Notes under the pieces: generated by a model
What the model was told of the DNA's origin: nothing
Seen by the model: only the letters and a program-made list of their open reading frames with translations
The model's database searches: none
Translations under genes and position numbers: made by a program
NCBI RefSeq assembly: GCF_044239665.1
Contig: NZ_JBIIBA010000014.1
Span: forward strand, 1-32,000
DNA: 32,000 nt
Source of the DNA: Sphingorhabdus sp.
GTDB taxonomy: Bacteria > Pseudomonadota > Alphaproteobacteria > Sphingomonadales > Sphingomonadaceae
Direction: 5' to 3'
Shown here: positions 1 to 9,505 of the stretch, one piece after another
How positions within the stretch are numbered: position 1 is the first letter of the stretch
Layout: the number at the start of each line of letters is the position of its first letter

Positions 1-147
1 GAGCGCGGTGTACGTTTTGGTCGCAAGCCAACGACAGAAGCGCAGATAGCAAAAATTCAATGGATGAAGCGAAATGGCTCATCAATCCGCGCTATCTGTA
101 AAGAGGTGAAAGTCAGTCCGAATACGGTTTATGCGATGTTGCAATGA
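1..147 (+). CDS. Serine recombinase (resolvase/invertase family), C-terminal HTH fragment; 5' end lies outside the window
   Basis: Frame 1 reads ERGVRFGRKPTTEAQIAKIQWMKRNGSSIRAICKEVKVSPNTVYAMLQ*. The GRKP linker followed by a short helix-turn-helix tail is the typical C-terminus of Tn3/Hin-type resolvases. Confidence 0.6.
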   Translation, partial: ERGVRFGRKPTTEAQIAKIQWMKRNGSSIRAICKEVKVSPNTVYAMLQ

Positions 148-315
148 AACGGGATTCTGGATGGATATGTCTCAGACTATTTTCTGAGAATCATTCAGAT
201 TTAATCAGTCTCCTTGATTATGAGTTCTACGAACTCATGCGATTTCGGGTTTCTTCGTAACCCTCATCGCTTTGTTTTTTTATATTTGTTGGTTGGTACA
301 TTTCGTTAGATTGCT

Positions 316-349
316 GCCACAGTGAGGCTTACGCTTCACTGTGGCTTTT
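316..349 (+). terminator. Rho-independent terminator-like hairpin downstream of the recombinase gene
   Basis: gccacagtga (316-325) pairs with tcactgtggc (336-345) and is followed by ttttgcacttttcg. Confidence 0.5.
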
Positions 350-726
350 GCACTTTTCGTTGAGTCGTTTAAGCCAATGATTGCACACAACCACGCAGTT
401 CAAATGAACTGAATGGGAGATAGGGTTACGCTGTTACCTTTATGTGTGGTGAGTTGTTCGCAACGCAGCGTCTTGGGAACCAATCATTTACCCCTAAGAC
501 ACATACAAGTTACCGCTTTCGCAGTCTCATCTTTCTTGATCCATCGCATAATATTTTTACAAGCCAGTTGCGACTTTGCTTGTTGTATTGCGTGTCTGTG
601 GTCACGCTTACTGGGCTGCAAGTTCTGTTGGCGACAGCTAGGCTGGCAAACTCAATGCGACGATAATGCCCTATGATAGAACATAGAAACGTGAATAGGT
701 TACAGACACGTTCTTTCTGCTCCACA

Positions 727-777
727 GATAAATACTAGTCAGATTGCGCTTACATTCTGACGATATGAGTATTTATC
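727..777. promoter_or_regulatory. Inverted repeat GATAAATACT-N31-AGTATTTATC bracketing the region just upstream of gene A1 (putative operator)
   Basis: 10-bp arms at 727-736 and 768-777. An inner gtcaga/tctgac inverted repeat is also present. The same half-site recurs at 7709-7718, 7744-7753 and 4967-4976. Confidence 0.45.
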
Positions 778-794
778 ACGGAGTAAGGAAAACT

Positions 795-1100
795 ATGAAA
801 AAAGACACGATTTTAGAAGTTTTTGGGTATCTTAAATCTAAGCAGATTGTTTCTGGCGAGAGCGAATTTTCTGAGCATTGGCTTGGTTGTTCAGAAGGCT
901 ACATGCGTAAATTACGACATAAGAAAACAGAACCAAGTTTGGGCACAATCGCAATATGTGCGAGTAGATTACAGAACGCTGCTGAGCAGTTGAGAACATT
1001 GCCGCGCTATCAGCCATTGGCAAAACAGCTTACATCAATGAGTATCAAATGTCGTTCGTTGGTTGATGCAGACAGCGTCGAGTTTGATCTGAGTAATTAA
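795..1100 (+). CDS. Island backbone protein A1 (101 aa), putative XRE/Cro-like HTH regulator
   Basis: ATG at 795 is preceded by aaggaaa. The segment FSEHWLGCSEGYMRKLRHKKTEPSLGTIAICASRL fits the XRE-type HTH pattern (LGxSxxYxxxxxxGxxxPSLxxxxxxAxxL). The paralog at 7771-8076 is 82% identical (18/101 differences by hand count). Confidence 0.55.
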   Translation: MKKDTILEVFGYLKSKQIVSGESEFSEHWLGCSEGYMRKLRHKKTEPSLGTIAICASRLQNAAEQLRTLPRYQPLAKQLTSMSIKCRSLVDADSVEFDLSN

Positions 1101-1159
1101 AACCAACTTGGAAAAAGGTTCCTTTTGCTGCACGGTTTGGATCTGTCACATCAAGACGG

Positions 1160-1795
1160 TTGGGTTTCTCATTGCACAAGTCAGACGAAGCACGGTTGGC
1201 AAAGCTTCACGATTTATTGGATCGATTGAGGCGTGGCGAAATCGTGCAAAATCGTCAGCTTCAGACTTGGCTTGGTGAGCAAGGTTATAAGGAATACGAG
1301 GATAGTTGGTCGAACACATTAGATCAGCGCAACTTGCTTAGTAGAAAATCTGGCGCAGTTATCGAGTATGAGGAGCTGCTGAAGAAGGCAATACTGCTCT
1401 ACAATCGCGGTGAAACTGCAAGTCAGCGAGGAGTGCGATCAGCACGACAGCTACACGCAAAAGCACAAACGGCTTTCGAACGGGCACTGCTGTATCTTGA
1501 AGAGCAACTAAGCATCGATCCGTCGTTGCAAATCTGGCTCGACAGACAATGTGATTTCACTGCTAGTAACTACCCCAGTCTTGACCCATTTAGCGTTCCA
1601 CGAGCTATTACTAGTCGCAGCTTAGACAATCAGAGCGGTCCAATTTCAGAAAAGATTGATAGCAAAAGACAGTGCAAAATTCGTGCGGTGGAAGCGGTGA
1701 TTGAGCAAATTAAGTGTCCAGAAGAGCGTCTAACAAATGAAGACATAGCTGCGAAACTTCGAGCACTAACGGCAACGATGGGGAAAAGGGCGTGA
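1160..1795 (+). CDS. Hypothetical protein B (211 aa), predicted mostly helical, no recognisable domain
   Basis: Long open frame in roughly 45% GC DNA. The only possible start is TTG at 1160, since there is no in-frame ATG or GTG upstream and the in-frame stop is at 1094. Its stop overlaps the start of the next ORF. Confidence 0.5.
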   Translation: MGFSLHKSDEARLAKLHDLLDRLRRGEIVQNRQLQTWLGEQGYKEYEDSWSNTLDQRNLLSRKSGAVIEYEELLKKAILLYNRGETASQRGVRSARQLHAKAQTAFERALLYLEEQLSIDPSLQIWLDRQCDFTASNYPSLDPFSVPRAITSRSLDNQSGPISEKIDSKRQCKIRAVEAVIEQIKCPEERLTNEDIAAKLRALTATMGKRA

Positions 1796-2274
1796 CTAAA
1801 GAACGGGAAAAACTAGGAAATGATCTTGCAATAGCTATCGCTCAATCGTCTGGGATTGGTGACAATCTCTTATGCATAGCTGAACATGTCGTCACTGAAA
1901 TCGAGTATCGGCATGGTATCGATGACGATCTAGGAAACGTATATCACGACTTTAAGATAATTTCCGACGGTTTACTCATAAGAACGACAGATGGATACGA
2001 CTACAAAGATGCTGATGCATTTATCCAAAACCGCATAAAAAGCAGAGACGTAAAGGCATCCGCTTGTCTAAAAAATGGAAGAGAACTCCAGATAGAATTT
2101 CTACTTACGTTTCTTTTCGGCGCCCATCTCGTCGATGAAGTCGAGATATATGTATGTATCAACAACAGAGACATTAGAGGGAATGATGTTACGTTAAGTG
2201 GGGAAATATACAGCGAGGATGTTTCTGAATCTGACCTGAAAGGCGCGTTATTGTGGCTAACGCTTCAGCGTTGA
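1792..2274 (+). CDS. Hypothetical acidic protein C (160 aa), no recognisable domain
   Basis: GTG start at 1792 overlaps the TGA of ORF B (GTGA) and is preceded by ggggaaaaggg. There is no internal Met. The ORF ends 3 nt before the 693-bp repeat begins. Confidence 0.5.
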   Translation: MTKEREKLGNDLAIAIAQSSGIGDNLLCIAEHVVTEIEYRHGIDDDLGNVYHDFKIISDGLLIRTTDGYDYKDADAFIQNRIKSRDVKASACLKNGRELQIEFLLTFLFGAHLVDEVEIYVCINNRDIRGNDVTLSGEIYSEDVSESDLKGALLWLTLQR

Positions 2275-2276
2275 TT

Positions 2277-2969
2277 GGCTAGATTTCGGTAGGAATATCA
2301 AAGCGAAGGATTCACATTGAGTTCTCGAAAAAGGAGAATGCAATGTCGCTAATATCATCGCTGAAGCTGATCGAGTTTCGACCAGAAACAGCACAAGGGC
2401 GCATCTTCGTGCGTCGTCGCAAACTGGCAGATAAGATCGATCAGCAGATCAAGCTTGCTACAGACCCAGCGTATGCACCAAGCAAGTTTGTTACTGTCAC
2501 TGACGAAAGCGGCAATCAGCATCGTCGTGAAGTAGCAAAGCGCATCAAGCGATGGTGGGTCGTGAACGCTGACGATACAGTTCAACTAACAGTGCGTTAT
2601 GGCAGCAAACCAATTGAGCTTGCGAAGGGCAAGAACGCTATTCAATGCGCTAATGCTTCAGAGGTCAGCACGGTTCTTTCAACGGTAAAGGAAGCTGTTT
2701 TGAACGGCGAACTTGATACTGTTTTGAACAGCGTCACTGGCGTTAGTTCGAAAGCGAAATAATCACGAGAAAGGCACTGGAAAGAGACGATTTGCGTAAG
2801 TATGATGTTTACACATTGTGCATCTACGACACGAGATTTCAATTACATACCTAAGTGATTGATTTAATGGAATAAATCTTAAATCGCATTAGTTACACAA
2901 AAATAAAAATTGGAGCTAACTAATTGATTTATATATGTTTTATAGCAGTGAATCGTTGAGTGGGAGTAG
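2277..2969. repeat. Direct repeat copy 1 (693 bp; partner at 8208-8900)
   Basis: Hand alignment at a constant offset of 5931 bp gives no indels and about 26 mismatches. The last 28 bp (atagcagtgaatcgttgagtgggagtag) are identical. Confidence 0.9.
2343..2762 (+). CDS. Island backbone protein D1 (139 aa), conserved hypothetical
   Basis: ATG is preceded by aaaggaga. It has a near-identical paralog at 8274-8693 (4/139 aa differences). The basic central region KRIKRWW has no motif I can name with confidence. Confidence 0.7.
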   Translation: MSLISSLKLIEFRPETAQGRIFVRRRKLADKIDQQIKLATDPAYAPSKFVTVTDESGNQHRREVAKRIKRWWVVNADDTVQLTVRYGSKPIELAKGKNAIQCANASEVSTVLSTVKEAVLNGELDTVLNSVTGVSSKAK

Positions 2970-3153
2970 AATGCGTTACTAAGTAACTGATATTGTTTGT
3001 TTATTTAGTTACACAAAACATTCACGACGCACAAAAAATCGTTTGTTTCCAGTTCCAGCAAGCTTATTGTTGCACAGCTACTTACACATTCTTGTCACTA
3101 CTCTAAATCGTAGGCGACATTGCTGTTTGGGTGCGCTTGAGGGGAAATAGACA
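2763..3153. other. attP-like hybrid junction: AT-rich arms with repeated TTAGTTACACAAAA / TTACACA motifs around the repeat end at 2969
   Basis: The 14-mer TTAGTTACACAAAA sits at 2889-2902 and 3005-3018. TTACACA also occurs at 2809-2815 and 3082-3088, all in the same orientation. A perfect 13-bp palindrome, gttactaagtaac, lies at 2975-2987. The integrase gene starts at 3154. Confidence 0.45.
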
Positions 3154-4395
3154 ATGTCACATCGAGTTAAGGCTGATGACGGTCGTATCTGGCTGTTTGA
3201 TAAGGTGCTTATTGAGCAGCGAGGTGTTTACTGGCACTTCAGAATGTGGCTTGATGGTGAGAACAAATATGTTCGTGAGAGCTTAAAAACTCGCGATTTA
3301 GAGACAGCAAAAAAACGAGCAGAAGATCGTTACATCGAGCTTCGTTCAGATCAGAAGTCTGGCAAACGCTACTTCTCGATTACAGCAGAAGAAGGGGTGA
3401 ATCTCTATCTCGCTGACAAACAAAAGCTGGTCGAACTCAAGACAATCACAAAGGGGCGTCACGGCACAATATCGACGCATCTTGGTCACTGGCTGGACTA
3501 TATCAAGCGTGACACAAAGCTGAAGGAACTGGAGCGAAACGCTGCTGAAGGCTACTTCGCTTATCGTATCAAAAACGCAAAGCACGGCATCGCACATACA
3601 ACGCTTGCAAACGAGCAAGGCACTATCAACGCAATGATGGCGTATCTTTTTCGTGCAAAACAGAGTGTCGTCGAAGCGTTCGATTTCCCCAAGCTTAGTA
3701 AGTATGAAATCGACAACGAAGCAATTCGACGAGCTACGCTTACTAACGACGAGTATAATGCATTGACCAAAGCAATGCGTTCATATGTCGCTCGTAAGGC
3801 AAACAAGCTCGACGATGATGAACATATGATGCGTGAGTTGGCGAGGCACTATGTTTTGATTGCAGCAAATGCGGGGCTGAGAACGGGTGAGCAGCAGCAA
3901 CTTCGCTGGTGTGATGTGAAGATGAAAAAGCACGAGCTTGGCGCAGCGATGCAGACGAAGCTGCTTGCCGAAATCTATGTGCGCAAAGAGACGAGTAAGG
4001 TTCGTAAGGATCGTAAATTATACTGTCGTGGGGGTACTTACTTCGAACGCTGGAAAGAGCTTTCCAGGCATACGAGCAGCACTGATTTGATATTCAGTCT
4101 CGACGGCAAAACACGCATTTCGAATCGTGCAATTCTCTATCATTTCCATCGTATGGTGAAGCTTGCAGGCATTGTAGATCACGAAGCACGAGGTATCGTT
4201 CCATACAGCTTACGGCACTTTATGATCACGCAAAGGGTGCTGAGTGGTTTATCGTTTCAGCAAGTCGCAGAGATGTGTGGCACGAGCGACACTGAGATCA
4301 GAAAGACATACTATCACTTGATAGATGATCGTCGTTTGGCGAACGCTGTGGCTGACTTTAGGCGTGACAAAGATGGTCGAATAATTCCCATCTAA
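3154..4395 (+). CDS. int: Tyrosine recombinase / phage-type integrase (413 aa)
   Basis: RBS gagggg lies 9 nt upstream. Catalytic-domain landmarks are AGLRTGE (Arg I), YSLRHFMIT (box II Arg) and EIRKTYYH (Tyr region). The long N-terminal domain is typical of arm-binding integrases. Confidence 0.85.
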   Translation: MSHRVKADDGRIWLFDKVLIEQRGVYWHFRMWLDGENKYVRESLKTRDLETAKKRAEDRYIELRSDQKSGKRYFSITAEEGVNLYLADKQKLVELKTITKGRHGTISTHLGHWLDYIKRDTKLKELERNAAEGYFAYRIKNAKHGIAHTTLANEQGTINAMMAYLFRAKQSVVEAFDFPKLSKYEIDNEAIRRATLTNDEYNALTKAMRSYVARKANKLDDDEHMMRELARHYVLIAANAGLRTGEQQQLRWCDVKMKKHELGAAMQTKLLAEIYVRKETSKVRKDRKLYCRGGTYFERWKELSRHTSSTDLIFSLDGKTRISNRAILYHFHRMVKLAGIVDHEARGIVPYSLRHFMITQRVLSGLSFQQVAEMCGTSDTEIRKTYYHLIDDRRLANAVADFRRDKDGRIIPI

Positions 4396-4543
4396 CTTAA
4401 AACATTTAAGTTAGCTCCGCTCGAAGCTACGAAAGCGTTTCTGGATCAGGTACTTTTGGAGTGGCGGGGCATCTTCAGCAATGATAGCTCCACGCAAATC
4501 ATCACATTAACAGCAGCGCATCATTCGTAAGTTAGGAAGTCTA

Positions 4544-4933
4544 ATGTTCAAAGAAGCTACTTTAATTCTTGCTGCCATTAGTGCGCCTGCGCCTGTCTCG
4601 CCTGAGCTGACGGTCGCTGATGGTTGGCTTTCGTTGCTTGATGCTAACAGCTGGTCTGCAAGCTGGAATGATACTGGAAAACTGTTTCGTTCGCAGCTGA
4701 CGCAGGAGCAGTGGGTAAAAACAGTTCAATCAGTTAGGGAGCCTTTAGGCACAGTTGTGTCGCGGGTCGTGAACGGTTCGAGTAAATCGAAATCACTGCC
4801 TGGTGCGCCTGATGGAGAGTATGAGATTTTACAGTATCGTACAGTTTTTTCGAAAAAGGCTGACACGATTGAAACAGTCATTCTTGCTCGTGAAGACGAC
4901 AAATGGAAGATAGTCGGTTACTTCATCCGTTAG
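4544..4933 (+). CDS. DUF4019-like small exported protein (129 aa)
   Basis: RBS aggaag. The N-terminus is hydrophobic (LILAAISAPAP). The C-terminal LPGAPDGEYEILQYRTVF...WKIVGYFI matches my memory of the DUF4019 family pattern. Confidence 0.5.
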   Translation: MFKEATLILAAISAPAPVSPELTVADGWLSLLDANSWSASWNDTGKLFRSQLTQEQWVKTVQSVREPLGTVVSRVVNGSSKSKSLPGAPDGEYEILQYRTVFSKKADTIETVILAREDDKWKIVGYFIR

Positions 4934-4997
4934 ATTAGCAATCGAGTAAGCCTGCAGCTCCCGAGTGATAAATACACTTGAAAGCAGGGTGTATGGG

Positions 4998-5426
4998 ATG
5001 AACGCACGAGAAGAATTGAAACGCTGGATTGCTATGGTGATCGAGCTATCATCAGAAGAAGAAAGCAAGACGATCAAGCAGGACATTGACCTGTTTCTGT
5101 CAGTCGCAGGGGAGTTGTCAGGGAAATTGGCTGATAGAAACACTGCGCTTGCGAAACAGTGTCGCTCAAGCAGCAAATCAAAGCCACCGAAGCCTGCTCC
5201 TCAGAAAGCCCAGAAGCAACCTAAGCCAGAGCCAAGCACTGCTGATACCCCACAATCCCAAAACGATTCAGAGGACCGTTCACAGGAGCGATCAGGACAA
5301 TCGTCGCAGAAACAACAAGCACCGACATCTCCCACTCATCAGCAACGAGCATTGCGTGGGTATGTCTATGGGGCACAAAATGATGAGGTTGCATTTCGCA
5401 AAGCTGCGCAGGCTATAACACGATGA
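4998..5426 (+). CDS. Hypothetical protein with a helical N-terminus and a long Pro/Gln/Ser/Lys-rich low-complexity linker (142 aa from ATG 4998)
   Basis: The open frame spans 4965-5426. ATG at 4998 follows agggtg. The stop overlaps the next start (ATGA at 5423-5426). A GATAAATACA half-site lies at 4967-4976. Confidence 0.5.
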   Translation: MNAREELKRWIAMVIELSSEEESKTIKQDIDLFLSVAGELSGKLADRNTALAKQCRSSSKSKPPKPAPQKAQKQPKPEPSTADTPQSQNDSEDRSQERSGQSSQKQQAPTSPTHQQRALRGYVYGAQNDEVAFRKAAQAITR

Positions 5427-5767
5427 ACGACAGGCTTATCCAAAGCCAGAAGCGGCTGCACGACAGTCTGTTTGAACTTTACATTGATGGTGGGTTGGAA
5501 CTGTTTCAGGCTGGCACTCGTGGCTTAAAGCGTGAGTTAATTATAAGGCTTGAGACAAGCGCACTCACACCAGAGAAGGGTGAAATAATTCACTACTATG
5601 CAATCAATCGTTGGGATGAAAACGATGAGTTTGACGAGTGGGCAAAGCCGTCAATGGCTCTGTCAGCGGAAGCTGAGCGCATTTTAGGAGTGACGAATGA
5701 GCAGCTTGCTCATTGTCGTGCAAGTGATTATGCACTCGACGATTTTTTCCGTTTCCTGCAGTTCTGA
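5423..5767 (+). CDS. Truncated, degenerate DnaQ-like (DEDD) exonuclease N-terminal fragment (114 aa)
   Basis: LIIRLETSALTPEKGEIIHYYAI...AERILGVTNEQL...FFRFLQF follows the ExoI-region pattern (vlDxETTGLxPxxxxIIEigav...vHGITxexL...Fxxfl). The first acidic residue is Arg (RLE instead of DxE). The ORF stops before the ExoII and ExoIII motifs. Confidence 0.45.
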   Translation: MNDRLIQSQKRLHDSLFELYIDGGLELFQAGTRGLKRELIIRLETSALTPEKGEIIHYYAINRWDENDEFDEWAKPSMALSAEAERILGVTNEQLAHCRASDYALDDFFRFLQF

Positions 5768-5774
5768 GAAGATT

Positions 5775-6269
5775 GTGATCGTCACTGAGCGCCTCAAGTT
5801 ACGCCTGCCAAAACTCTCCGATTTGGAAGACATTCACGAAATATTCTGTGACGATGAGGTAATGACTTACTGGTCAAATGGAGCTCATCAAAGCATATCT
5901 GAAACAAGAACTTGGCTTACGCCACTTCTTGATTACAATCCTGAAAGCCAATTTGACTTTTTCATTGATTTTCAAGGAAAAATAGTTGGTAAACTTGGTT
6001 TCTGAAAATTACCAGAAGTCGGTTTTATTCTTAATAGATCTTATTGGGGAATAGGTATTGCTTCAGAGGCAATGAGAGGACTAATAAGTTATGTCAGAGA
6101 ATATAATATTTCTGATCATTTATTTGCTGATGTAGACCCACGCAATTTAAGATCCATCAATCTATTGAACAAGTTTGGTTTTGAAAATATTGGTTTTGAA
6201 AGACAGACATTTGAAACTCATATAGGCTGGTGCGATAGCATTTATTACAAGTTAGAGTTAAAAGACTGA
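5775..6269 (+). pseudogene. GNAT (RimJ/RimL-like) N-acetyltransferase interrupted by a single in-frame TGA at 6003-6005
   Basis: ORFs 5697-6005 and 6072-6269 share one frame. Read-through gives ...GKIVGKLGF*KLPEVGFILNRSYWGIGIASEAMRGL..., which includes the GNAT motif A (RxxGxG/A). TERLKLRLPKLSDLEDIHEIFCDDEV is a typical RimJ/L N-terminus. GTG at 5775 is a plausible start. The segment is about 35% GC by eye. Confidence 0.7.
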
Positions 6270-6286
6270 ATTGTTATTTGTGTTGT

Positions 6287-6853
6287 TCAAATCACATTAA
6301 CAGCATTTGCCAATTGCTCATCACTGACCCAGCAATATCCAGCAGTAGTAGCAATGTTAGCGTGACCCATAGCTTGCTGAATTGTCGCCATCCCAATGCC
6401 AGCAGCGTTTAAGCGTGTAGCAAATGTCCTTCTGCCTGAATGACTGCTCGTTTTGATACCAGCGGCTGCGTAGATTGCTTTGAAGCGCAAGCTGAGACTG
6501 ATGTTGCTAAAATGGTTGCCAGTCCGTGTTGAGCGAATGAATGCTTTGCTCTCATCAAGCTGGCTAATCTGAGCGAGATATTGATTTAGGATTTTGCGAA
6601 GTTCGTCTGAGATGAAAACCCTGCGTGAGCGATTGCCTTTCGTTTGATGTTTGCTGAGATTGATGACTTCTACTGCTCGTCTATCAATCCCGCGAACATC
6701 AGAAATCTTCAAAGCCGCAATCTCTCCAATGCGCATCCCAGCTAAGATACTAAGCGACAAAGCCGTTCTATCTCTGAGACCGTTATTCCCTGTGTCAGCG
6801 ATACGCATCACTCGTTTGATTTCGTCTTTAGTCAGAACCTTTGCTTTTGCCAT
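6287..6853 (-). CDS. Minimal tyrosine recombinase, catalytic domain only (188 aa from MAKAK), FimB/FimE-sized
   Basis: AGMRIGE (Arg I), SSHSGRRTFATRL (HxxR) and GHANIATTAGY (His/Tyr) are present. There is no N-terminal core-binding or arm domain. The start at 6853 is chosen over the ORF-track start at 6931. Confidence 0.8.
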   Translation of the reverse strand: MAKAKVLTKDEIKRVMRIADTGNNGLRDRTALSLSILAGMRIGEIAALKISDVRGIDRRAVEVINLSKHQTKGNRSRRVFISDELRKILNQYLAQISQLDESKAFIRSTRTGNHFSNISLSLRFKAIYAAAGIKTSSHSGRRTFATRLNAAGIGMATIQQAMGHANIATTAGYCWVSDEQLANAVNVI

Positions 6854-7093
6854 TTTGCTTGTCTCACATAAACTTTTCCGATGAGAGATTCTTAAATTAA
6901 TCAGACATTTGATCCTACCGATTTCCTCCATCAGTCGTTTTGTTGTTTCCCAATGACCTATGTCGTTTTCACAAACTTTTGATTCTTTGTTAATGTCTTT
7001 GCATTTTGGGTATTATGAAGACTTGCGCTGAAATCACTCAGCACATTGCCTTGTCCATAAGACGCACGACTTCACCGCAGCATAGCTGTCCTG

Positions 7094-7726
7094 TTAGTTC
7101 GAGTTGCGCCTAATGTATCGCTGCTCAGCCCTTGCAAGATGCTGATCGAATGCGATCGAGGCATCGTTAATGTGCTGGAAGCGATCTGCTGCTGATCGTA
7201 GGTCGATCAACGCAGTGTCACGCATCTTGGGTTGATACTGATCGAGATGCGTCAGCTTCGCATTGAAGCCGTTCATCTCACCATCGTGATCTTCGTGAAG
7301 CAGATACCAGGAAGCTCGTTGCTTGCTGAAAACGGGCAGTATCTCGTTCTGCTCAGCTACCGCTGCGCCCGCACCCTCCATACCAGCCCAGAGCGCATTA
7401 AGCAGAACGCAGAACTCTCCCGTGTCACCCAGAGATCGAGCAAGGAAGTGCGAATGTATGTTGTCCCCGTTCCTGCCGCTGTGCGTGTAAACAAAACGCT
7501 GAACTCGATTCTGCCTACCCTTTGACTGCCCGTAACAGATACGATCCAACTTGCTCCAGAAGTGCGACCATTGTCGCTGTGCTTCTTCAATCCCAATTTT
7601 GTGTCCAACAGCGAAGTTCAGTGTCCCATAAACATTCCAATCATACGACGAAGCCCACTTCGCCCAGTTCAGTCTCACTAACGATTTTGCGACCATTCTC
7701 ATTTCCCAGATAAATACAGTGAGCAA
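7094..7726 (-). CDS. Hypothetical protein with HUH-type rolling-circle Rep-like motif order (about 200-210 aa; start uncertain between 7726, 7702 and 7696)
   Basis: The motif order is YGTLNF (motif I-like), about 55 aa, NIHSHFLA (HxH, motif II-like), about 50 aa, then SWYLLHEDH (a possible Tyr motif). It is divergent from gene A2 across a palindromic region. Confidence 0.4.
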   Translation of the reverse strand: MLTVFIWEMRMVAKSLVRLNWAKWASSYDWNVYGTLNFAVGHKIGIEEAQRQWSHFWSKLDRICYGQSKGRQNRVQRFVYTHSGRNGDNIHSHFLARSLGDTGEFCVLLNALWAGMEGAGAAVAEQNEILPVFSKQRASWYLLHEDHDGEMNGFNAKLTHLDQYQPKMRDTALIDLRSAADRFQHINDASIAFDQHLARAEQRYIRRNSN

Positions 7727-7753
7727 GTCACTTGCTACTGATGTGTATTTATC
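7709..7753. promoter_or_regulatory. Inverted repeat GATAAATACA-N25-TGTATTTATC with a nested near-perfect palindrome, lying between the divergent Rep-like and A2 genes
   Basis: Arms lie at 7709-7718 and 7744-7753. The inner sequence cagtgagcaagt c acttgctactg has one mismatch. Confidence 0.45.
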
Positions 7754-7770
7754 ACTGGGAGATCGAAACG

Positions 7771-8076
7771 ATGAGAAAAGATATTATTTATGAAGTGCTT
7801 GGGTTTCTAAAAGACAAAGGAATTGCTGCGACTGAAAGCGAGTTCAGCGAACATTGGTTAGGTTGTTCGGAAGGGTATTTGCGTAAGCTGCGTCATCAAA
7901 AAACAGAACCAAGTCTGGGCACGATAGCAATTTGTGCCAGTCGATTAATGTGCGCCGCTGAGCAGTTGAAAACATTGCCGCGTTATCAGCCATTAGCAAA
8001 ACAGCTTACATCTATGAGTATCAGATGTCGTTCGTTGGTTGATGCTGACAGTGTTGAGTTCGATCTGGCTGGGTGA
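7771..8076 (+). CDS. Island backbone protein A2 (101 aa), paralog of A1, putative XRE/Cro-like HTH regulator
   Basis: ATG at 7771 follows gggaga. It shares 82% aa identity with A1, and the C-terminal 60 aa are nearly identical. Confidence 0.55.
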   Translation: MRKDIIYEVLGFLKDKGIAATESEFSEHWLGCSEGYLRKLRHQKTEPSLGTIAICASRLMCAAEQLKTLPRYQPLAKQLTSMSIRCRSLVDADSVEFDLAG

Positions 8077-8126
8077 GTTTTCTGTTTTAGGAAAGCGGAA
8101 CAGAAAGCTGAAATGACAAATGGTGC

Positions 8127-8174
8127 GCTGTCGGTTTTCCCGACAACGCATTGATTGTCGGGAAAACCGACAGC
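8127..8174. repeat. Perfect 20-bp stem / 8-nt loop hairpin in the empty A-D slot
   Basis: gctgtcggttttcccgacaa (8127-8146), loop cgcattga, then ttgtcgggaaaaccgacagc (8155-8174). A weaker 7-bp hairpin lies at 8080-8105. Confidence 0.9.
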
Positions 8175-8207
8175 TTACTTTAAACTTTAAAGCTTGAGTT
8201 TTTGCGA

Positions 8208-8900
8208 GGCTACATTTCGGTAGGAATATCAAAATGAAGGATTCACATTGAGTTCTCGAAAAAGGAGAATGCAATGTCGCTAATATCATCGCTGAAGCTG
8301 ATCGAGTTTCGACCAGAAACAGCACAAGGGCGCATCTTCGTGCGTCGTCGTAAACTGGCAGATAAGATCGATCAGCAGATCAAGCTTGCTACAGACCCAG
8401 CGTATGCACCAAGCAAGTTTGTTACTGTCACTGACGAAAGCGGCAATCAGCATCGTCGTGAGGTAGCGAAACGCATCAAGCGTTGGTGGGTCGTGAACGC
8501 TGACGATACAGTGCAACTAACAGTGCGTTATGGCAGCAAACCAATCGAGCTTGCGAAGGGCAAGAACGCTATTCAATGCACTAATGCGTCAGAGGTCAGC
8601 ACGGTTCTTTCAACGGTCAAGGAAGCTGTTTTGAACGGCGAACTTGATACTGCTTTGAGCAGTGTCACTGGCGTTGGTTCGAAAGCGAAATAATCACGAG
8701 AAAGGCACTGGAAAGAGACGGTTTGCGCAAGTATGATGTTTACACATTGTGCATCTACGACACGAGATTTCAATTACATACATAAGTAATTGATTTATTG
8801 GAATAAATCTTAAATCGCATTAGTTACACAAAACTAAAAATTGGAGTTAACTAATTGATTTATATATATTTCATAGCAGTGAATCGTTGAGTGGGAGTAG
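8208..8900. repeat. Direct repeat copy 2 (693 bp; partner at 2277-2969). Its right end coincides with the island/chromosome boundary
   Basis: Same alignment as copy 1. The sequence after 8900 (gcgttcacccgcaatgacc...) is GC-rich chromosome. Confidence 0.9.
8274..8693 (+). CDS. Island backbone protein D2 (139 aa), paralog of D1
   Basis: 97% aa identity to D1, with the same RBS and context. Confidence 0.7.
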   Translation: MSLISSLKLIEFRPETAQGRIFVRRRKLADKIDQQIKLATDPAYAPSKFVTVTDESGNQHRREVAKRIKRWWVVNADDTVQLTVRYGSKPIELAKGKNAIQCTNASEVSTVLSTVKEAVLNGELDTALSSVTGVGSKAK

Positions 8901-8913
8901 GCGTTCACCCGCA

Positions 8914-9123
8914 ATGACCGCCGCGCTATCGCCTGCGCAGATTAGCGAGATCGTCGAAATGGCGCTGTCGGATCATATCAGCTTCACGCAGATTTCGGCG
9001 CAGCACGGGGTCACGCCTGACGAGATTAAAGTCATCATGCGCACCCAGTTAAAGCCCGGAAGCTATCGCGCATGGCGCAAGCGTGTGCGCGATTTCGGCG
9101 ACCGGCGGGCGCATTATAAATGA
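8914..9123 (+). CDS. DUF2805 (TIGR03643-like) family small protein (69 aa)
   Basis: MTAALSPAQISEIVEMALSDHISFTQI...YRAWRKRV matches my memory of this family. The ORF-track start at 8887 (TTG) lies inside island DNA, so ATG 8914 is preferred. Confidence 0.6.
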   Translation: MTAALSPAQISEIVEMALSDHISFTQISAQHGVTPDEIKVIMRTQLKPGSYRAWRKRVRDFGDRRAHYK

Positions 9124-9151
9124 TATTCATGGCAGATAACGGACCCAGCAT

Positions 9152-9505
9152 ATGACCCTAACTCTCTACGGCATTCCCAATTGCGACACCGTCAAAAAAG
9201 CGCGGAAATATTTGGATGCGCGCGGCGTCAGCTTTGCCTTTCATGATTATAAAAAGGCAGGGGTGACGCAAGAACATCTGGCGCGCTGGGCCAGCCAAGT
9301 CGGCTGGGAAAAGCTGCTGAACAAGGCGGGCACGACGTTTAAGAAGCTGCCCGATGCGGATAAGGCCGACATAGATGCGACCAAGGCGATTGCGTTGATG
9401 GTTGCCAACCCGTCCATGATCAAACGGCCAGTGGTTGAAGGCGGCAAGGCTTTGCTCGTCGGGTTTAAGGAATCCGAATGGGATGCGCTTTTGTCGCAGA
9501 ATTGA
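9152..9505 (+). CDS. ArsC/Spx-family protein (YffB-like)
   Basis: LYGIPNCDTVKKARKYL at the N-terminus and SMIKRPVV near the C-terminus; 117 aa. Confidence 0.8.
   Translation: MTLTLYGIPNCDTVKKARKYLDARGVSFAFHDYKKAGVTQEHLARWASQVGWEKLLNKAGTTFKKLPDADKADIDATKAIALMVANPSMIKRPVVEGGKALLVGFKESEWDALLSQN

Follow-up and report, generated by a model that had tools for sequence, protein, structure and literature searches.

Do two short genes that overlap by four bases, share a cargo position in a mobile element and resemble no recognised family act as a functional pair? The question is raised by a stretch of 32,000 nucleotides from a Sphingorhabdus sp. (contig NZ_JBIIBA010000014.1, positions 1 to 32,000; hereafter the window), whose left part is occupied by an element inserted at the 3′ end of guaA and in which two open reading frames (ORFs), here called B and C, follow one another on the forward strand (Table 1). 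A preliminary description made from the letters of the window had put them forward as a two-gene cassette, possibly a new defence or toxin–immunity pair. Having mapped the proteins of the element by profile hidden Markov models onto 137 related loci (cited below by L numbers), we consider it probable that B and C are separate, individually dispensable single-gene modules, stacked in a rightward string that leads from DUF6626 through a variable slot to DUF6641 and the attachment (att) site. The distribution of the genes shows that the long-term neighbour of B is DUF6641 and that the usual neighbour of C is DUF6626.

Distribution of B and C across related elements

Of the 57 full-length B genes, 39 have DUF6641 no more than 300 bp downstream and another four have it within 1 kb; only three are followed by C, and these three belong to the lineage of the window. 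A further set, of 80 metagenome loci, was seeded on DUF6641 and so carries no bias towards B: among its 71 informative loci, B lies directly upstream of DUF6641 in 40 (56%), and DUF6641 itself is present in every intact element, with B or without it. The B–DUF6641 order holds in Sphingomonadales, Rhodobacteraceae, SAR116, Porticoccus, Halomonas, Marinomonas and others, at B identities of 35–45%. Across loci the identities of B and of DUF6641 fall together (Pearson 0.96, Spearman 0.43), which argues that B is an old resident of its position. At the scale of close relatives, 94 pairs of loci whose DUF6641 proteins are at least 90% identical differ in the presence of B, and nearest neighbours agree in their B state in 64 of 82 comparisons, where chance alone would give 56%; B is dispensable, and near-identical elements exchange it.

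As for C, four of the five lineages that have it lack an adjoining B. In every lineage but that of the window the gene directly follows DUF6626, as seen in L006 (69% identical to the window's C), in L128 (41%), and in L129 and L132/L133 (36%). The complete genome of Sphingomonas lacunae (L130; CP053015.1, 1536481–1557098) carries homologues of both genes within one element, where they lie 7 kb apart and on opposite strands, with a BsoBI-type restriction–modification system (an endonuclease and an N6/N4 methyltransferase) between them; here a unit of DUF6626–C and the small recombinase of the element is inverted relative to the usual layout and lies next to the integrase gene (int), with B–DUF6641 at the far end.

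How, then, did B and C come to overlap in the window? All loci with this arrangement belong to one narrow freshwater clade (C 98% and B 93–100% identical), and comparison of the window with L001, a locus that has B alone, shows one replaced block, 1707–2275, spanning the last ~30 codons of B together with C; homology between the two loci breaks at 1706 and 2276. Because a single block was replaced and the arrangement is confined to so narrow a clade, the juxtaposition of B and C looks like the result of a single recombination event.

Genes B and C and their products

As gene models, both ORFs hold up as first described. The four-base overlap lies where it had been placed, the GTG of C (1792–1794) sitting on the TGA stop of B (1793–1795) to give GTGA, and neither gene starts with ATG: C opens with GTG, and B with TTG at either of two candidate positions. 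Which of these is used is less certain, TTG 1160 being matched by an ATG in L004 and TTG 1172, four codons on, being the start in many homologues. The start of C finds support in five lineages, whose GTG or ATG codons align with one another and are each preceded by a G-rich Shine–Dalgarno-like run; the four-base overlap of B and C recurs in L004, L005, L007 and L137. Conservation of the frames in homologues, to which the preliminary description had looked for signs of translation, is found for both genes: B has 96 homologue clusters (~100) with 16 invariant columns, and the frame and length of C are retained in homologues as little as 36% identical. Ratios of nonsynonymous to synonymous substitution rates (dN/dS) against relatives are 0.09–0.31 for B and 0.17 for C, as expected under purifying selection. 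Since homologues and frames are conserved, dN/dS is low and start positions are kept, B and C are, judged by their sequences, real genes and more than chance ORFs. A few short metatranscriptome contigs cover parts of both, for which carry-over of DNA is possible, and the metatranscriptome reads are too sparse to show an operon.

Protein B is basic, with an isoelectric point (pI) of 8.7. The helical character anticipated for it agrees with an AlphaFold2 model built from a 69-sequence alignment, which is all-helical at a mean predicted local distance difference test score (pLDDT) of 84 and comprises four long helices at the N terminus, a conserved stretch of irregular structure and a pair of helices at the C terminus; the invariant motifs are D/R, S-R-S and K-R. 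The family ranges over Alpha-, Beta- and Gammaproteobacteria; tblastn found no B in phage or plasmid records, and B is also absent from IMG/VR. One candidate family, DUF5321, was considered and judged spurious: a per-member Pfam scan gave weak matches in 11 of the 69 B members (best expectation value E=8e-5), over a coiled-coil-like stretch.

Protein C is as acidic as had been supposed (pI 4.65, net charge about −12, 29 D+E against 17 K+R), its only methionine is that of the start codon, and the acidity is shared by all homologues (pI 4.3–4.9). It is also extremely rare. A first search found three clusters and an exhaustive profile search five representative clusters among 1.84 billion proteins; a wider profile found seven clusters at 90% identity, and the overall count is eight among 5.8 billion proteins. 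The protein is small and single-domain, its distribution is patchy, and it is always found on this mobile element. That neither protein could be assigned to a family proved to be more than a limit of unaided reading, for single-sequence and profile searches of both B and C gave no match in Pfam, PHROGs, PADLOC, NCBIfam or PDB sequences, and profile–profile comparison of B with C showed no relation between the two.

Possible roles of B and C

The genes of the string—DUF6626, the slot genes and DUF6641—all run rightward and point to att. In the explanation that we favour, of two separate modules, a single rightward transcript would serve both B and C, translation of C being reinitiated at its GTG behind the G-rich run; in an excised circle or a tandem array this transcript would continue across att towards int, so that the slot genes would be co-expressed with int in an element that is mobile or has just arrived. 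B would most likely be a basic helical bundle whose binding or regulatory activity, in partnership with DUF6641, serves the life cycle of the element, whether in regulation, excision or transfer. C may be an independent acidic accessory protein, which most likely acts by binding, and so blocking, a basic partner. The interval between DUF6641 and int yielded no terminator-like site, and a scan for promoters and terminators gave counts not above chance.

Several observations pull the other way. The single transcript and the read-through into int are deduced from gene order and the lack of a terminator motif; a four-base overlap with a Shine–Dalgarno-like run is also what a co-adapted pair would be expected to show; B of the B–C lineage carries a C-terminal variant peculiar to that lineage, perhaps as an adaptation to C; and the exchange of B among near-identical elements fits cargo, defence cargo included, equally well. 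Structure prediction followed by Foldseek, an approach suggested at the outset, gave no meaningful fold match for either protein: the B model has no match with E<0.16 in PDB or BFVD, and the C model, built from four sequences as two N-terminal helices and a beta sheet, reaches a pLDDT of 59, too low to trust, which makes its Foldseek hits in PDB (none with E<0.28) meaningless.

One alternative is that B, alone or with DUF6641, is not a life-cycle factor but a cargo module with a new defence, anti-defence or exclusion function. Its dispensability and variable presence among near-identical elements would suit such a role, as would its invariant polar residues, possibly functional, and its place on the border of a cargo zone, which is occupied in S. 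lacunae by the BsoBI-type system and in other loci by an AAA ATPase and methyltransferases; other guaA islands, too, have been reported to carry immune systems in their hotspots (10.64898/2026.01.12.698999). Set against this, B has no match among 5027 PADLOC models and no known fold, DUF6641 is kept whether B is there or not, and the fixed position of B and its divergence alongside DUF6641 down to 35% identity are unlike those of typical hotspot cargo. We regard this alternative as unlikely.

A second proposal, to which we give the same low weight, concerns C: that it is a stand-alone inhibitor, such as an acidic mimic or an anti-defence protein, or else confers immunity to a toxin whose gene lies elsewhere. 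The charge of C and its conservation among homologues speak for this, together with the size, rarity and patchy, strictly element-borne occurrence of the protein. It has, however, no homology to anti-restriction or immunity families, the low-confidence model lends it no fold, and its acidity is moderate, far from that of DNA mimics of the Ocr or ArdA type.

The most far-reaching reading joins these proposals, and is a little less likely than either: the stretch from DUF6626 to DUF6641 would be a hotspot of new conflict genes in an undescribed family of guaA mini-islands, equipped with an HUH protein and two tyrosine recombinases and widespread in aquatic Proteobacteria, with B, alone or with DUF6641, as a defence, exclusion or helper-hijacking module of new fold and C as an acidic single-protein inhibitor in the same operon.

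Far less survives of the idea that B and C form a functional pair—toxin and antitoxin, toxin and immunity protein, or a two-gene defence system—held together by translational coupling. In its favour are the GTGA overlap and the Shine–Dalgarno-like run, conserved in all B–C loci, the opposite charges of the proteins (pI 8.7 and 4.65) and their shared place in the variable slot of a mobile element. A toxin gene and its cognate immunity or antitoxin gene would, however, be co-inherited, and this makes a pair unlikely because B occurs without C in dozens of loci from three proteobacterial classes, C mostly occurs without an adjoining B, the two are separated in S. lacunae, and the overlapping arrangement is restricted to one clade; PADLOC, Pfam and NCBIfam, moreover, match neither protein. 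The claim of a cassette is thus largely refuted by gene distribution, and we judge its chances to be very poor. Of the defence or toxin–antitoxin role that the preliminary description had put forward with the caveat that direct sequence evidence was lacking, the caveat stands, for sequence and fold alike, while the distribution of B and C makes the two-gene form of the role unlikely; a defence or anti-defence role for B or C alone is possible. Finally, that B or C or both are not translated at all can be dismissed almost outright, since the non-ATG starts, the lack of a known family and the very thin RNA coverage are outweighed by frames and starts conserved to 35% identity, by dN/dS well below 1 and by the confident predicted fold of B.

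The guaA element and its variable slot

The window holds two copies of the element in tandem: the right part of copy 1 (1–2969) and a complete copy 2 (2970–8900). Searching with the window's B protein yielded short contigs only, none of them with the left part of copy 1. The tandem arrangement follows from the 14-base att core TTGAGTGGGAGTAG, which occurs twice, first followed by the left end of an element and int and then by chromosome of ~57% GC (guanine plus cytosine) content. The left-end sequence AATGCGTTACTAAG begins at 2970, directly after the first core, and precedes int; the GC content, ~45% in the element, rises at ~9000, and the chromosomal flank beyond is syntenic with L004 and S. 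lacunae. The right end of the element repeats the stop region of guaA, ...ATTGAGTGGGAGTAG, and the core recurs at the right ends of both elements and, in L001, at the stop of guaA.

Table 1. Features of the two element copies in the window.
Feature	Position	Strand	Remarks
DUF6626 gene, copy 1	795..1100	+	Pfam PF20331, E=7e-22; left border of the slot, first gene of the rightward string
Palindrome AAAAGG-TT-CCTTTT	1113..1126		in the conserved leader upstream of B
Gene B	1160..1795	+	211 aa from TTG 1160; 207 aa if from TTG 1172
Gene C	1792..2274	+	160 aa, GTG start
DUF6641 leader (GGTAGGAATATCAA...AAGGAGAATGCA-ATG)	2276..2342	+	conserved in five aligned loci; right border of the slot
DUF6641 gene, copy 1	2343..2762	+	Pfam PF20346, E=4e-16; last gene before att
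att core TTGAGTGGGAGTAG	2956..2969		junction of copy 1 and copy 2; equals the 3′ end of guaA (...IEWE, then stop)
413-aa tyrosine integrase gene, copy 2	3154..4395	+	Pfam PF00589; downstream of copy 1 DUF6641, same strand
Small tyrosine recombinase gene	6287..6931	-	Pfam PF00589, E=2e-32; catalytic domain only; backbone gene
Gene for 210-aa HUH-motif protein	7094..7726	-	GTxxF, HxHF and Y...E invariant in 8 homologues
DUF6626 gene, copy 2	7771..8076	+	Pfam PF20331, E=1.5e-20
Empty slot, copy 2	8077..8273		197 bp, non-coding; hairpin with 14-bp arms at 8133-8168 (8133-8146 / 8155-8168)
DUF6641 gene, copy 2	8274..8693	+	97% identical to copy 1 DUF6641
att core TTGAGTGGGAGTAG	8887..8900		right end of the array; chromosome from 8901

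In L001, whose B is 89% identical to that of the window, the element lies between guaA and chromosomal genes, in the order guaA, int, DUF4019, further genes, small recombinase (minus strand), 210-aa protein (minus strand), DUF6626, B, DUF6641. The layout from guaA and int to DUF6626, B, DUF6641 and chromosome is seen in both L001 and L130, and in both the 413-aa integrase adjoins guaA.

Between DUF6626 and DUF6641, the slot of copy 1 holds B and C and that of copy 2 is empty, so that the same genome carries a sister element with nothing in the slot. Elsewhere we find B alone (L001), C alone (L006, L132) or 2–6 kb of cargo; the variable slot recognised in the first reading of the window is thus empty or filled by B, by C, by both or by other cargo, with sharp breakpoints. 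Homology to other elements stops at 1091 and resumes at 2276–2277, and metagenome contigs break exactly at 1091 and 2277. In a lake metagenome run (X1, positions 600–3200), depth was ~110x over DUF6626, ~31x over DUF6641 and ~7x over B–C, which, together with the contig ends, indicates that many slot variants occur together in one lake population. Exchange of the slot takes place through recombination within the conserved genes on either side. Its location, a hotspot between conserved genes of a mobile element, is one of the criteria by which defence systems are recognised, and is suggestive only.

The leader of B is conserved in the window, L001, L004, L008 and L009 (a sphingomonad clade), even where the upstream gene differs, and its palindrome is possibly a protein-binding site. 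In the loci of the DUF6641-seeded sample that lack B, the place upstream is taken by heterogeneous cargo, with genes for membrane proteins, hydrolases, methyltransferases, an AAA ATPase and a Sel1-repeat protein. A second recurrent family also precedes DUF6641 in some elements without B (L079:5153-5920, L091:537-1370, L114:1489-2253); its members have 254–277 aa, carry the motifs FAEPK and RNPNRSNARY and end in GxFP, and profile–profile comparison showed no relation of this family to B. An ORF on a contig of a metagenome-assembled genome (L016:998-1402) joins the C-terminal half of B with that of DUF6641, and is either a deletion derivative or an assembly chimera.

The remaining backbone includes two proteins encoded on the minus strand. 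The small recombinase, which matches Xer and tyrosine invertase models in NCBIfam and recurs in related loci, has the size of FimB/FimE invertases (~190–214 aa) and is conserved in the element family beside the 413-aa integrase; it may act in inversion, resolution or transfer. The 210-aa protein, whose gene is divergent from DUF6626 and belongs to the backbone in many related loci, has motifs of HUH endonucleases and is probably a Rep or relaxase; it has no Pfam, NCBIfam or PHROG match, its HUH membership coming from motifs only. Besides int, copy 2 carries DUF4019, an exonuclease fragment and a broken GNAT gene. Its cargo at 5423–6270 looks decayed, with an N-terminal DnaQ-like exonuclease fragment (5423–5767) and a GNAT acetyltransferase broken by a stop and a change of frame near 6003. 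In copy 1, the ~600 bp upstream of DUF6626, where copy 2 has the HUH gene, hold no convincing ORF, and the window opens (1–147) on the C-terminal helix-turn-helix (HTH_7) of a serine resolvase or invertase that ends at 147. The element likewise stands in tandem in L025 (three copies), L026 and L030, where some of the arrays include decayed copies. An Rfam scan of 1–9500 gave no match.

To what known elements might this one belong? Like GIsul2 and the PIME family, it is a small chromosomal island inserted at the 3′ end of guaA by a tyrosine integrase. PIMEs are guaA-targeting integrative mobilizable elements whose cargo hotspots can hold immune systems and whose hallmark genes are alpA, repA/repC, traJ/traI and trbJKL (10.64898/2026.01.12.698999). 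By contrast, Pfam and NCBIfam recognise none of these hallmarks among the ORFs of element copy 2, and the backbone differs from that of GIsul2 and PIME in consisting of DUF6626 and DUF6641 together with the small tyrosine recombinase and the HUH-motif protein; B and C are absent from the PIME description (10.64898/2026.01.12.698999). Among plasmid records the integrase has no close relative, its best match being 28% identical. Two further identities were rejected: tycheposons do not target guaA, and a phage satellite was dropped as unsupported because phage and plasmid records and IMG/VR give no B and almost no DUF6641 (no tblastn match in phage records and one distant match in IMG/VR).

The slot and its genes likewise recall several known systems. 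P4-like satellites and SXT elements have defence and cargo hotspots flanked by conserved genes, and the slot resembles these in being empty or filled with unrelated genes in near-identical elements, with sharp breakpoints; B differs from the cargo of such hotspots in occupying one fixed place beside DUF6641 and in diverging with it over long distances. PADLOC identifies no known defence gene in the window's slot, and a search of PADLOC-DB at E<=1 returned no family for B, C, DUF6626 or DUF6641. Type II toxin–antitoxin genes are similarly short, overlapping, co-oriented, borne on mobile elements and of opposite net charge, but B and C are not co-inherited, and neither a toxin or antitoxin family (Pfam, NCBIfam, PADLOC, PDB sequences) nor a DNA-binding antitoxin domain was recognised in them. 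Compared with the ArdA and Ocr DNA mimics, C has a net charge of −12 at pI 4.65, an acidity kept in its homologues, and shows no sequence match; its model is too poor for a comparison of folds. The flanking genes are clear members of DUF6626 (PF20331) and DUF6641 (PF20346), B and C belong to neither family, and our literature search found no mention of either DUF; an element family with B at a fixed place is seemingly undescribed in the literature searched.

Read as a pair, B and C would lead to the wrong unit being cloned; those to consider are B, B with DUF6641, and C. What interest the locus holds is modest and lies not in a toxin–immunity cassette but in the seemingly undescribed element family and in B, a well-conserved protein family of ~100 clusters in three proteobacterial classes, lacking a recognisable fold, whose confident predicted structure matches no solved or viral one. 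The sequencing runs in which the sequence was found were mostly lake metagenomes. In lake and marine bacteria the element is present at guaA in tandem arrays, with variable cargo that includes a restriction–modification system, and may thereby help to explain strain-level differences in gene content within these abundant environmental groups.

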